Of a DNA stretch of 64,000 bases, positions 2,840-27,213 are shown one piece after another. Source of the DNA: Candidatus Hadarchaeota archaeon (GTDB lineage Archaea > Hadarchaeota > Hadarchaeia > Hadarchaeales > JAGGTB01). Location of the stretch: positions 160,001 to 224,000 of the forward strand of contig CAYLJV010000001.1 in NCBI GenBank assembly GCA_964384105.1, in the 5' to 3' direction. Within the stretch, counting starts at the first letter, position 1; every line of letters begins with the position of its first letter. Made by a program: the position numbers and the translations under genes. Below the pieces are notes generated by a model. That model did no database searches. It worked only from the letters and a program-made list of their open reading frames with translations, and was not told where the DNA came from.

Positions 2840-3045
2840 AAAAACGGAAATAACTATTGATGAAACTTATAGAAAGGCTAAGAAGGTTTGAATGATTTTC
2901 TACCTGAAAAAGAAGAAGGCTATAACCTCTCTAAAACCCTTGAAAACGCAATTAAAGAGAAATTAAACAACTATGATAAGCGGATTAATAATGATCAGTT
3001 CTTGAGCGGCCGTGGTCCAGTGGCAAGACTCTGGCTTCCCGAGCC
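2840..3045 (+). pseudogene. Integrase intN fragment (RHH/CcdA-like), degraded at its 5' end
   Basis: KEEGYNLSKTLENAIKEKL reads in frame into the att-encoded LSGRGPVARLWLPEP; an upstream ITIDETYRKAKK piece lies in another frame. Confidence 0.65.
2997..3045 (+). repeat. att site, right copy, overlapping the intact tRNA-Gly
   Basis: Identical to 1382-1430. Confidence 0.95.
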
Positions 3046-3079
3046 AGCGACGCGGGTTCAAATCCCGCCGGCCGCACCA
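3006..3079 (+). tRNA. tRNA-Gly (CCC), CCA encoded
   Basis: Acceptor GCGGCCG/CGGCCGC, anticodon arm CTGGC-TT-CCC-GA-GCCAG, T arm GCGGG-TTCAAAT-CCCGC, ends ACCA. Confidence 0.98.
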
Positions 3080-24495: not shown

Positions 24496-24664
24496 TCTTT
24501 CACCCTCTCTACGTGTATATTCTCTGCTTTTGCAGTACAACTTTCCGGATTTTAACGTATTAAAATTTCCAAGACTCTATTAGTTTGCAAAGAGATTATC
24601 TAGACAGTAATGTTATGAATTGAGTGTTGACAAATGAAATGTTATATATGCCGGAGGTGTTTCT

Positions 24665-25332
24665 ATAGGACCTAATTTTGTAGCTGGCCTGGACGAGGCG
24701 GGTAGAGAATCAATCCACTGGTAGATGATTCGCCCAAAGGTCCCGTTCTAGGCCCGATGGTTATATGTGGCGTCGTAGTGAGTCCAAAGGTATTCTCTGA
24801 CCTGAGAGCTGAAAGGGTAAGAGACTCTAAGCTGATAGGCCCCAATCGGAGAGAATTCTTAGACGGGTTCCTAAAAGAAAAGATGAAAAAATATGAGATT
24901 GTTGAATATTCTCCATTTGAGATAGATCGACTCAGGGGTGGAGGAACTAACATAAACCAAATAGAAGCAGAAGGTTTTGCCAAGGTACTAAATTTTCTTC
25001 AACCTTCAAAAGCCTACATAGACTCAGCGAGCGCAAATACGGAAAAATTTGCATCTGATATAGCAAATAAGTTAGAGTGCGAAGTTGAACTGATTGTTGA
25101 GCATAAAGCTGATGAAAATTATCTTCCCGTTTCTGCAGCTTCTATTATAGCTAAAGTTAGAAGAGATCAGAGAATCGATGAATTAAAAGAAGAATACGGT
25201 GAAATAGGATCAGGTTATCCTTCTGATGAGCGAACGATAAGATTTTTGGAAAGATGGGTGGATGGGAACAAGAAATTTCCAGATTTTGTGAGAAAATCTT
25301 GGAAAACTGCTCAAAGATTTTTAAATAAGTGA
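24665..25332 (+). CDS. rnhB: Ribonuclease HII, interrupted by a 32-nt BHB intron (exons 24665-24705 and 24738-25332; 211 aa after splicing)
   Basis: Exon 1 (M)GPNFVAGLDEAGR joins exon 2 GPVLGPMV...VRDSKL...IDSAS...EHKAD...VSAASIIAKVRRD...GSGYPSD...RKSW; the exons are in different frames; probable ATA start after SD GGAGGTG. Confidence 0.92.
24706..24737 (+). other. Bulge-helix-bulge (archaeal-type) intron in rnhB pre-mRNA
   Basis: Central helix GGGT(24700-03)/GCCC(24732-35), bulges AGA(24704-06) and AAA(24736-38), inner helix GAATCA/TGATTC, outer exon-exon helix; cutting after the 2nd bulge nt gives GGT AG|A GGT CCC = GRGP. Confidence 0.88.
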
Positions 25333-25338
25333 GTTTTA

Positions 25339-25624
25339 AGACCCCTGTGTTGCCTTTCCTACTAACTCCAAGCTTCCTCGTCTGCCAAACGGCGTCCTCC
25401 ACTTGGTAACCCTCATGGAAGGCTTTTTCAGGGGTCTGCCCATCATGTTTCGTACCCGGGTTGTCTCTCAGTCATCGACTGGTGTCACGCCAAGCACTCC
25501 TGAAAGGACCGCATGGGTACGGTTTGTTTGATGGATACTCAAGTGTTACCTCAGCATTGCTCTGGCGATCATGTTTTCACGCCAGTCCTCGAAGCTGTGG
25601 TTTTAGCCTTTCATCGCAGTTAGT
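25339..25624 (-). ncRNA. Candidate structured ncRNA of unknown class (~290 nt); strand tentative
   Basis: GC-richer than its AT-rich flank, no credible ORF, about ten complementary segment pairs, several of them crossing. Confidence 0.6.
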
Positions 25625-25818
25625 TTTCTGTATTTAACAAGTAAAAAAAGATATCCTTTTTATTATCCTGCTTAATATTTTAGTCTCACTAAAATTTCTA
25701 AAAGGGTTTTTTATATATTTTGGAGTGAATTTGAGCTTTATTTTTATATTTAAGGAGAATAAAGATAACTCAAAAATTTTCAAAATGCTTATAATAATAT
25801 AAATCTTAAAAATATTCA

Positions 25819-27213
25819 ATGTCGAAGGAGAAAGACGGATATAACTCTCCTTATATTCCCAATAACGATGCAGAAATACGCGAGGAGATGCTCCAAGAGA
25901 TCGGAGTGAAGGATGTCGAAGAGCTTTATGCAGATATTCCAGAGAGTTCTAGATTCAGGGGCAAATTGAATATTCCCCCTTCTATGTCCGAATCTGAAGT
26001 AAAAAAACATGTCTCTTCAATTCTATCAAAAAATAGGTCAAATGAAGAAGTAATTAGCTTTTTAGGAGCTGGTTGCTGGCCTCACTATGTTCCAGCACTC
26101 TGCGATGAGGTTAAGGGTAGGTCCGAATTTTTGACGGCCTATGCCGGGGAGACATATTCCGACTTGGGAAAATTTCAAGCTCTGTTTGAATTTCAGAGCA
26201 TGATGGGAGAACTACTCAATTTAGACGCGGTTGGATTAAGCGTATATGACTGGGCTACAGCCTGTGGAGATGCTGCTAGAATGGCTGCAAAGGTCACTGG
26301 GGATAGCGAGATTTTAGTTCCCAGGTTAATTAATCCGGAGAGATTATCTGTCATGAGAAATTACTGTGAGTCATTGGCAGAAGTAAATCTTGTTGATTAT
26401 AGTCCTGAGACCGGTCTTTTGGACCTGGAGGACTTAAAGGAAAAAATATCCGCGGATACAGCTGGTGTTTACATAGAAAATCCTTCTTACTTGGGGTTTA
26501 TTGAAGAAAATGGAAAGGAAATTTCAGAAATTGCCCATGATTATGACGCATTGAGTATTGTGGGAGTGGACCCGATCTCTTTAGGAGTGTTAAGCCCGCC
26601 CGGTGATTATGGTGCAGATATTGTATGTGGGGAAGGTCAACCCCTTGGTATGCACATGAACTATGGTGGGGGTTTAGTAGGAATATTAGCCTGTCGGGAC
26701 GAAGAGAGGATTGTCTCTGCTATGCCGTGTCAGTTGTTAACCATTGCTCCTGAGGCGGAGGGTGATAATTTTGGATTTTCTTGGTGGGCACTACCAGAAC
26801 GGAGTATGTATTTTGAGAGAGCTAAAGTTAAATCGATTGTTGGGAGTTCTACAGCTCTTTGGAGTATAGCTGCTGGAGTTTATTTAGCGCTGGTGGGATC
26901 TGATTTAGACAAACTCGGAGAAACCATAATGCAGAAATCTCATTATGCGAAGCAATTAATCTCCCAGATAGATGGGGTGAGTGTCCCTGTTTTTGAATCA
27001 TCTTACTTCAAGGAATTCACAGTTAATTTTGATAATACAGATAAGAGTGTGAAGGAAGTAAATCAAGAGCTTCTTGATGAGGGAATTCAGGGTGGGAAGG
27101 ATCTATCTGAGGAATTTCCCGAACTTGGAGAGACCGCACTTTACTGTGTTACTGAAATACATGACCAAGAGGAAATCGAAAAACTTGCTCGAACTCTGGA
27201 AGGGGTGTTGTGA
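25819..27213 (+). CDS. gcvPA: Glycine dehydrogenase (decarboxylating) subunit 1-like, divergent
   Basis: SFLGAG.W.HYVP, RSEFLTAY, QALFEFQSM, PGDYGADI..GEGQPLG. Confidence 0.9.
   Translation: MSKEKDGYNSPYIPNNDAEIREEMLQEIGVKDVEELYADIPESSRFRGKLNIPPSMSESEVKKHVSSILSKNRSNEEVISFLGAGCWPHYVPALCDEVKGRSEFLTAYAGETYSDLGKFQALFEFQSMMGELLNLDAVGLSVYDWATACGDAARMAAKVTGDSEILVPRLINPERLSVMRNYCESLAEVNLVDYSPETGLLDLEDLKEKISADTAGVYIENPSYLGFIEENGKEISEIAHDYDALSIVGVDPISLGVLSPPGDYGADIVCGEGQPLGMHMNYGGGLVGILACRDEERIVSAMPCQLLTIAPEAEGDNFGFSWWALPERSMYFERAKVKSIVGSSTALWSIAAGVYLALVGSDLDKLGETIMQKSHYAKQLISQIDGVSVPVFESSYFKEFTVNFDNTDKSVKEVNQELLDEGIQGGKDLSEEFPELGETALYCVTEIHDQEEIEKLARTLEGVL

Follow-up and report, generated by a model that had tools for sequence, protein, structure and literature searches.

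A conserved RNA gene behind rnhB in a Hadarchaeota archaeon is very probably a three-hairpin box H/ACA guide RNA

A 64,000-nucleotide (nt) stretch of DNA from Candidatus Hadarchaeota archaeon (assembly GCA_964384105.1, contig CAYLJV010000001.1, positions 160,001 to 224,000; hereafter the window, in which DNA coordinates are counted from its first letter) contains a structured RNA encoded behind rnhB, which we conclude with high confidence to be a three-hairpin archaeal box H/ACA guide for Cbf5 pseudouridylation of the core of 23S ribosomal RNA (rRNA). The small RNA (sRNA) gene is real and conserved, and it is probably expressed. The kind of RNA is already known, as it is a distant counterpart of Pab40, Pf7 and Afu4 that the corresponding Rfam model misses. 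An earlier reading of the sequence, hereafter the original prediction, had placed at this locus a multi-pseudoknot RNA that might be related to the bacterial raiA motif or form a class of its own. It is not a new class, because its anatomy, its predicted targets and its only recurring Rfam match all fit archaeal multi-hairpin H/ACA guides. Only the covarying clamps around the units go further than the textbook H/ACA picture, and they amount to a modest structural novelty. The assignment supplies a function for an RNA gene that is conserved in most genomes of an uncultured archaeal phylum and had no annotation, and it places three predicted pseudouridines of that phylum at the functional centre of the ribosome. 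Literature searches gave no H/ACA or pseudouridine study among the matches listed, either for Hadarchaeota or for uncultured archaea or metagenome-assembled genomes (MAGs).

Conserved helices and anatomy of the three units

A DNA search of 41 related genomes recovered the RNA in 19, the source genome included. Eighteen of these 19 copies were aligned with MAFFT (alignment A1), the copy at locus L016 being omitted as it is cut by a contig end. On this alignment, a model of 12 helices and 69 base pairs (bp) has 80.9% of its cells paired, compared with 72.6 ± 0.7% in shuffles, and 38 of the 69 pairs show compensatory change, compared with 27.7 ± 2.6 in shuffles. None of 500 shuffles reaches any of the five measures used, and when the partners were slid as a control only 36–50% of cells were paired. 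RNAalifold run on unit 3 alone recovers the core of its three stems. Of the 1,223 cells, 139 are G-U and 18 are A-C, an excess that places the RNA on the minus strand. The covariation across homologues thus bears out the original prediction in its central claim of a functional, structured noncoding RNA and in its choice of strand. Folding energy, also proposed as a check, gave a z-score of −2.61 for the minus strand (4 of 200 shuffles equal) and −3.75 for the plus strand (0 of 200); it is moderately better than that of shuffles and by itself decides nothing.

The conserved fold resolves into three units of the same build, each with a two-stranded pocket between a lower and an upper stem, a kink-turn (K-turn) or K-loop that caps the upper stem, and an ANA box. 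The lower stems measure 7, 7 and 7 bp, with one bulge in unit 3, and the pocket strands 7/5, 8/7 and 10/8 nt, in line with the roughly 7–9 bp and 5–11 nt of archaeal box H/ACA guides. An ANA box follows every lower stem in all 54 cases (18 sequences × 3 units), reading ACA in 50 and AAA or AUA in 4. The facing GA dinucleotides atop each upper stem are invariant columns of the alignment; the purine-rich "UGA..." loops noticed earlier are therefore real features, which prove to be K-turn or K-loop G·A motifs rather than T-loops. The letters of the pocket strands are the most conserved in the whole RNA, and the guide strands are conserved because the rRNA sites that they must match are invariant or nearly so. 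The elements of the gene and its three units, all on the minus strand (-), are as follows.

25339-25618 (-): sRNA gene, about 280 nt, with three box H/ACA units
25549..25600 (-): unit 1, helices 3 and 4 of the model
25594-25600 / 25549-25555 (-): unit 1 lower stem
25587-25593 (-): unit 1 5' guide, UUCGAGG
25580-25586 / 25561-25567 (-): unit 1 upper stem, 93.6% paired, 4 of 7 pairs compensatory
25568-25579 (-): unit 1 K-loop
25556-25560 (-): unit 1 3' guide, GCAAU
25544..25546 (-): unit 1 ACA box; in homologues ACA in 16 of 18, AUA in 1, AAA in 1
25440..25534 (-): unit 2 with its closing helix, helices 5-8 of the model
25529-25534 / 25440-25445 (-): unit 2 outer helix, 4 of 6 pairs compensatory
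25515-25521 / 25451-25457 (-): unit 2 lower stem
25507-25514 (-): unit 2 5' guide, AUGCGGUC
25500-25506 / 25465-25471 (-): unit 2 upper stem, 6 of 7 pairs compensatory
25472-25499 (-): unit 2 K-turn region
25458-25464 (-): unit 2 3' guide, ACAACCC
25446-25448 (-): unit 2 ACA, ACA in 18 of 18 homologues
25339..25437 (-): unit 3 with its closing helix, helices 9-12 of the model
25429-25437 / 25339-25347 (-): unit 3 outer helix
25417-25423 / 25352-25359 (-): unit 3 lower stem, one bulged A
25407-25416 (-): unit 3 5' guide, AUGAGGGUUA
25401-25406 / 25368-25373 (-): unit 3 upper stem, 97.2% paired
25374-25400 (-): unit 3 G·A motif and apical stem
25360-25367 (-): unit 3 3' guide, AGUUAGUA
25348-25350 (-): unit 3 ACA; in homologues ACA in 16 of 18, AAA in 2

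The structural rules given in the available parts of PMC2377435 and PMC4652768 call for an upper stem of 5–6 bp, about 10 stacked layers to the second G·A pair, and an ANA box 14–15 nt from the pocket. Counted by hand, there are 10 stacked layers from pocket to G·A in unit 1 and 9–10 in units 2 and 3. A hand count on the window's own RNA places the ANA box 14 nt from the pocket-closing pair in unit 1 and 14–16 nt in unit 2, depending on two unpaired nucleotides. Unit 1 conforms to the published rules, and unit 2 does so approximately. In unit 3 the distance is 16 nt, which recalls the atypical Haloferax guide for helix 69.

At gathering thresholds, an Rfam scan of the whole window returned nothing but a tRNA gene at 3006-3076 (plus strand, 65.2 bits). 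When positions 25200-25800 were scanned on both strands at E values up to 10, RF00064, HgcG (Pab40), matched 25343-25653 on the minus strand over the full length of its model, with 25.0 bits and an E value of 5.5e-5; the only other matches were two at chance level (E 8.1 and 5). That scan gave no match to raiA, ROOL, GOLLD, group I or II introns, RNase P, the signal recognition particle (SRP) RNA or the glycine riboswitch, in keeping with the earlier statement that the RNA is neither an SRP nor an RNase P RNA, and leaving no trace of the suggested raiA relationship on either strand. HgcG is also the only Rfam family that recurs among the relatives, being found at 11 of 19 homologous loci at E ≤ 1, with 18.3–33.5 bits in the relatives. 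The HgcG alignment matches the pocket strands of hairpins 1 and 3 to those of the model (CGAGGA and GC.A; GGUUA and GUUA), places an ACA after each hairpin, and aligns the guide strands of units 1 and 3 with motifs 1 and 3 of Pab40. Thus, the proposed Rfam check did turn up an archaeal family, at a score below that family's threshold; by Rfam's threshold the RNA is not an HgcG member, and on its sequence it is best described as a distant counterpart.

Predicted rRNA targets and known counterparts

In this genome the 23S gene is complete and the 16S gene is divided between two contig ends. All U positions of the two rRNAs were scanned as potential targets, allowing at most 2 unpaired guide nucleotides by the upper stem and requiring at least 4 bp per arm. 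The best site of each unit lies in the organism's own 23S rRNA:

Unit 1: U2607, UUGC-UA-CCUCGA, 4+6 bp; 2 of 300 shuffled guides as good
Unit 2: U2697, GGGUU-UA-GACCGU, 5+6 bp; 27 of 300 shuffled guides as good
Unit 3: U2036 in helix 69, UAAC-UA-UAACCCUC, 4+8 bp; 1 of 300 shuffled guides as good

Across the 1.6-Mb genome, the exact bipartite target strings of units 1 and 3 are confined to the 23S gene; when the genome was searched for a contiguous target of unit 2 with the 5' arm kept strict, only scattered one-mismatch matches came up. A shift of the unit 3 pairing by two leaves U-A-U-A unpaired and puts U2038 at a distance of 14 nt from the ACA box, and unit 3 probably targets U2038 as well. 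We take U2607, U2697 and U2036/U2038 to be the probable equivalents of E. coli 2496, 2586 and 1915/1917. Other candidate targets of unit 2, namely the A-loop string GGGUUGU at 23S position 2659 and two GGACCGC strings in 16S rRNA, were dropped, as each time only a single arm was matched.

The predicted pairings are kept across relatives. Wherever the rRNA site is available, the target sites are invariant or nearly so, and among relatives with both the RNA and the rRNA site, unit 2 pairs with 5 bp plus 4–6 bp in 11 of 11 and unit 3 with 4 bp plus 8–10 bp in 8 of 8. For unit 1, inspection by hand shows a co-change of guide and target, in that rRNA CCUCGC occurs with guide AGCGAG (G018) and CCUCGA with AUCGAG (G017); one genome, G015, departs from this pattern.

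In the mechanism we propose, a single minus-strand transcript of about 280 nt would fold into the three box H/ACA units, each of which would bind one set of Cbf5, Nop10 and L7Ae, plus Gar1 if the organism has it. L7Ae would occupy the K-turn or K-loop of the upper stem, while the PUA domain of Cbf5 would hold the lower stem and the ANA box. The pocket strands would then pair with 23S rRNA on both sides of an unpaired U-N, placing the U in the Cbf5 active site. By this mechanism, unit 1 would direct modification of U2607, adjoining the peptidyl-transferase centre, unit 2 that of U2697 in the peptidyl-transferase ring, and unit 3 that of U2036, and probably U2038, in the unpaired U-A-U-A of the helix 69 loop. 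Three of these ribonucleoprotein (RNP) components have genes in the genome: Nop10 (93.1 bits), a Cbf5-type DKCLD domain in a frame of 332 amino acids (68.3 bits), and two proteins of the L7Ae family (94.4 and 60.1 bits).

Comparison with known RNAs is consistent with these assignments. Pab40, Pho40 and Pf7 of Pyrococcus, Afu4 of Archaeoglobus and the family RF00064 resemble the RNA described here in that a single transcript of comparable length carries three H/ACA units, every one of them with an ANA box and a K-turn or K-loop. As reported in the available parts of PMC2377435, the 23S positions guided by Pab40 are 2588 for motif 1 and, within the loop of helix 69, 2016 for motif 3; motif 2 of Afu4 and Pf7 is expected to target the position equivalent to P. 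abyssi 2678, which is pseudouridine in haloarchaea, fly and mouse. The spacing of those sites is 90 nt (2678−2588) and 572 nt (2588−2016), compared with 90 nt (2697−2607) and 571 nt (U2607−U2036) here, and judged by this spacing the predicted target order in Pab40, Pf7 and Afu4 is the same as in the Hadarchaeota RNA. However, there are differences. The sequence has diverged too far for the Rfam threshold (25 versus 77 bits). The units here also have extra enclosing elements, a K-turn around unit 1 and helices of 6 and 9 bp around units 2 and 3, and the Rfam consensus structure lacks such helices.

Haloferax volcanii sR-h45, compared by published target positions only, shares both sites of units 2 and 3, arranged alike from 5' to 3': in the available parts of PMC7075261, its stem-loop SL1 guides position 2605 and SL2 guides positions 1940 and 1942 in an unpaired UNUN, a spacing of 665 nt (2605−1940) compared with 661 nt here. 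The pocket of unit 3 likewise leaves U-A-U-A unpaired and has a longer ANA distance. In contrast to sR-h45, which has two units joined by a 56-nt linker with an H-box-like hinge (PMC7075261, same parts), the RNA described here has a third unit at its 5' end and closing helices. By these analogies, units 1, 2 and 3 would correspond to motifs 1, 2 and 3 of Pab40 and Afu4, and units 2 and 3 to SL1 and SL2 of sR-h45.

A Methanobrevibacter MAG (L159:690-840) contains an unannotated two-hairpin H/ACA RNA that carries the guides of units 2 and 3 (ACGGUC / AACCC; CGAGGGUUA / AGUUAGU) in the same order. It lacks unit 1, its 3' box reads AAA or AUA, and its alignment to a covariance model of unit 3 (model R1, below) shows deletions at most positions of that unit's closing helix, so that no closing helix surrounds its second hairpin. 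Another Pyrococcus RNA, Pab21, also combines an H/ACA unit with an extra K-turn-forming element outside the hairpin; according to the available parts of PMC2377435, that element is a complete C/D guide unit downstream, whereas here it is a bare K-turn flanking unit 1 and its ACA box. Guides for the same three sites thus occur in unchanged order in Pyrococcus and Archaeoglobus, and guides for two of the sites in Haloferax and the Methanobrevibacter MAG, a distribution that by analogy favors an ancient guide RNA of modular build for those rRNA pseudouridines that are most conserved. The assignment also shows that the HgcG model of Rfam is too narrow to annotate the family outside Thermococcales.

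The 23S genes of the relatives show two further features near the predicted targets. In six relatives (G007, G021, G036, G009, G013 and G022; loci L026, L034, L041, L042, L043 and L048), the 23S sequence diverges right after the helix 69 string UAACCCUC, beside the unit 3 target, which looks like an rRNA insertion or intron. In G009, G013, G023, G025, G027, G035, G036 and G037, the 23S match is split near own position 2613, a few nucleotides past U2607, the target of unit 1, in the 3' direction, with about 0.2–1.2 kb between the pieces; this split is probably an rRNA intron, and the relatives that have it mostly keep unit 3 of the guide RNA.

Clamps, RNA libraries and alternative readings

Beyond its three units, the RNA contains paired elements that enclose them. 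A further K-turn, with the full build of C-stem, 3-nt bulge, tandem G·A / A·G pairs and NC-stem, encloses unit 1 together with its ACA box, and units 2 and 3 sit within helices of 6 and 9 bp, so that all three ANA boxes fall in internal loops. The two strands of the enclosing K-turn are:

25608..25618 (-): K-turn 5' strand, C-stem UGC, 3-nt bulge GAU, GA, NC-stem AAG
25536..25543 (-): K-turn 3' strand, NC-stem CUU, GA, C-stem GUA

In the homologues, 88.9% of the cells of the C-stem are paired, with compensatory change in 2 of its 3 pairs, and 79.6% of those of the NC-stem; the letters AUGA of the 5' strand and GAG of the 3' strand are invariant (18 of 18 each). The 21 clamp pairs taken alone are 78.0% paired, compared with 70.1 ± 1.3% in shuffles (0 of 500), have a covariation score of 0.293 compared with 0.179 (0 of 500), and show compensatory change in 11 pairs, a number reached by 16 of 500 shuffles. 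We tentatively suggest, giving the idea somewhat less than even weight, that the Hadarchaeia-type RNA is a "clamped" H/ACA RNA, in which the fourth K-turn and the closing helices hold each ANA box in a closed loop instead of a free hinge or tail. Were the clamps part of the mature RNP, they would imply an extra L7Ae site and a presentation of the ANA box to the Cbf5 PUA domain of a kind undescribed for characterised H/ACA RNPs; they might set a unit-by-unit assembly or shield the RNA.

Contigs assembled from RNA libraries cover the gene in all four runs examined, which come from four studies. One contig of 264 nt lies wholly on 25344-25607 with 2 letters differing, one of 176 nt lies on 25425-25600, short contigs with adapter letters at both ends lie on 25429-25605, and one of 195 nt, from a relative, lies on 25348-25513. 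Cover is absent over 24900-25343 and consists of low-depth pieces over 25608-26100, and absence of cover is not taken as evidence. Small shares of the stretch occur in runs of various sample types, which we do not read as habitat. In three runs the contigs end at 25600-25607, just inside or short of the 5' K-turn strand at 25608-25618. These ends are at most a weak hint on the 5' end of the RNA: either 5' ends are under-represented in the libraries, or the mature RNA lacks the 5' K-turn strand despite its covariation.

Several observations weigh against a three-unit H/ACA guide. The score of 25.0 bits does not reach the RF00064 gathering score of 77 bits. The 3'-guide duplexes are short, at 4–5 bp, and the unit 2 target score is matched by 27 of 300 shuffled guides; in distant relatives, the 3' arm of unit 1 falls to only 3 bp and its 5' arm requires an unpaired UNN, a reading made partly by hand. 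The unit 2 pocket has two surplus unpaired guide nucleotides beside the upper stem. Unit 3 has an ANA distance of 16 nt, beyond the 14–15 nt stated in the available parts of PMC2377435, and a distance of this type is within the functional range for Haloferax SL2-type guides according to those of PMC7075261. The matching of rRNA positions between species is by analogy, resting as it does on spacing arithmetic and general 23S numbering, and the pseudouridines in this organism are predictions from sequence. Gar1 (PF04410) was not found in the 90.2%-complete genome, by a search that matched 3 of 14 control genomes, 2 of them over the cut-off. Finally, the RNA-library contigs are supporting evidence only, as they reveal neither the strand nor the level nor the true ends of the RNA, and DNA can be present in an RNA library.

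Some of these points would also suit an RNA that is built as an H/ACA RNA and has at least one unit that guides no modification, acting as an rRNA folding or processing chaperone or as an orphan, with the clamps serving some other assembly. The commonplace unit 2 score and the 3-bp arm of unit 1 in distant relatives favor such a role, as do the closing helices and fourth K-turn, which covary and for which the consulted parts of PMC2377435, PMC7075261 and PMC4652768 hold no account. However, the single best rRNA match of each of the three pockets is the site guided by the corresponding unit of characterised homologues (available parts of PMC2377435 and PMC7075261), and the guide strands are the RNA's most conserved letters, as expected of strands that match invariant rRNA. 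We consider nonguiding units unlikely. A plus-strand element acting in cis, either as the 3' end or terminator of rnhB or as a leader or riboswitch of the glycine-cleavage gene, would have in its favor the slightly better folding z-score of that strand (−3.75) and its place directly upstream of the GcvP-subunit gene. The ratio of 139 G-U to 18 A-C cells speaks for the minus strand, on which alone the ANA boxes and G·A motifs can be read. Moreover, gcvP adjoins the RNA at the genome's own locus only and at 0 of 18 loci in other relatives, while rnhB does so at 11 of 18, and Rfam gave no glycine-riboswitch match. We regard a cis element as extremely improbable.

The proposal of a new, large pseudoknotted class, possibly akin to raiA, rests on complementary segments that are all present in the sequence of an RNA that is indeed conserved and structured. 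Of the 11 pairings listed in the original prediction, five are conserved, covarying helices: AGACCCCTG/CAGGGGTCT is the unit 3 closing helix, GCCTTTCC/GGAAGGC the unit 3 lower stem, CCATCA/TGATGG the unit 2 closing helix, CGTACCC/GGGTACG the unit 2 lower stem, and CTGGCG/CGCCAG the unit 1 upper stem. The other six find no support when set against shuffles. Taken together, ACTAACT/AGTTAGT, AGCTTC/GAAGCT and GGTAAC/GTTACC are 67.0% paired, compared with 67.3% in shuffles (390 of 500 as good), and CACTTG/CAAGTG, TCCT/AGGA and CAGTC/GACTG have a covariation score of 0.186 compared with 0.173 (reached by 114 of 500). The latter three are 71.9% paired compared with 69.5% (5 of 500 shuffles), mostly through invariant letters, and CAGTC/GACTG alone has 46.7% of its cells paired. 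All six make use of guide strands, an ACA box or strands of better-supported helices, and the crossing pairs are thus chance complementarity; the multi-pseudoknot fold falls with them. Given also that neither raiA nor any other large RNA of Rfam matched at E ≤ 10, and that three nested H/ACA units explain every conserved element, we judge a new class to be very unlikely and retain the three-hairpin H/ACA guide.

Distribution and the rnhB locus

The distribution of the RNA was followed with R1, a covariance model of unit 3 and its closing helix. Of the 65 genomes of the order, 55 contain unit 3 by this model, among them 23 of the 25 of high quality and all 6 genomes of a family that BLAST had missed, and unit 3 is single-copy in every genome but one. 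R1 gave no match at E ≤ 0.001 in the one searched genome of the phylum outside the order. Among five genomes of other archaeal groups, three gave no match at E ≤ 0.1, and the matches outside the phylum were a hairpin of the Methanobrevibacter MAG (27.1 bits) and one of a Promethearchaeia MAG (21.9 bits).

At its own locus, the sRNA gene is intergenic between two plus-strand frames, an RNase HII-like frame (rnhB) with its end at 25332 and a GcvP-subunit-like frame with its start at 25819. The GC content is 0.50–0.51 in 150-nt windows over 25325-25624, 0.21–0.23 in 25625-25849 and about 0.35 in rnhB, so the GC-rich noncoding stretch described earlier is as stated. Frames that overlap the sRNA stretch are short only, at 42–81 amino acids, and a protein-coding reading was set aside, as the pattern of conservation is that of a paired RNA. 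The AT-rich tract upstream, which had been called promoter-like, contains a box that is conserved among the homologues:

25641..25650 (-): T-rich, TATA-like box, consensus TTTTTTTAT, alignment A1 columns 9-17, 18 homologues

This box precedes the 5' K-turn, counted to its first nucleotide, by about 23–32 nt and may be an archaeal promoter element.

The neighbouring rnhB gene is itself interrupted (24638-24760, plus strand; see also loci L002-L007 and L123). Its frame ends in ...GLDEAGR and resumes with GPVLGPM 32 nt on, the insert occupying 24707-24738; its length is thus not divisible by 3. It folds into a helix, a 3-nt bulge (AGA), a 4-bp helix, a 3-nt bulge (AAA) and a further helix, an arrangement like the bulge-helix-bulge motifs of the type cut by the archaeal splicing endonuclease. 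Inserts of 25–26 nt, with a covarying inner helix, occupy the same rnhB site in all 6 other genomes of the genus. Among 81 rnhB loci, the GLDEAGR and GPVLGPM motifs are contiguous in 3 other loci of the order and in 44 other archaeal loci; an insert of 23 nt occupies this site in one Micrarchaeota MAG, and a search of the remaining 26 loci did not recover the motifs. From its sequence, the insert is probably a mini-intron in a protein-coding gene. Mini-introns in archaeal protein-coding genes are rare, and the rnhB insert may merit more attention than the sRNA.

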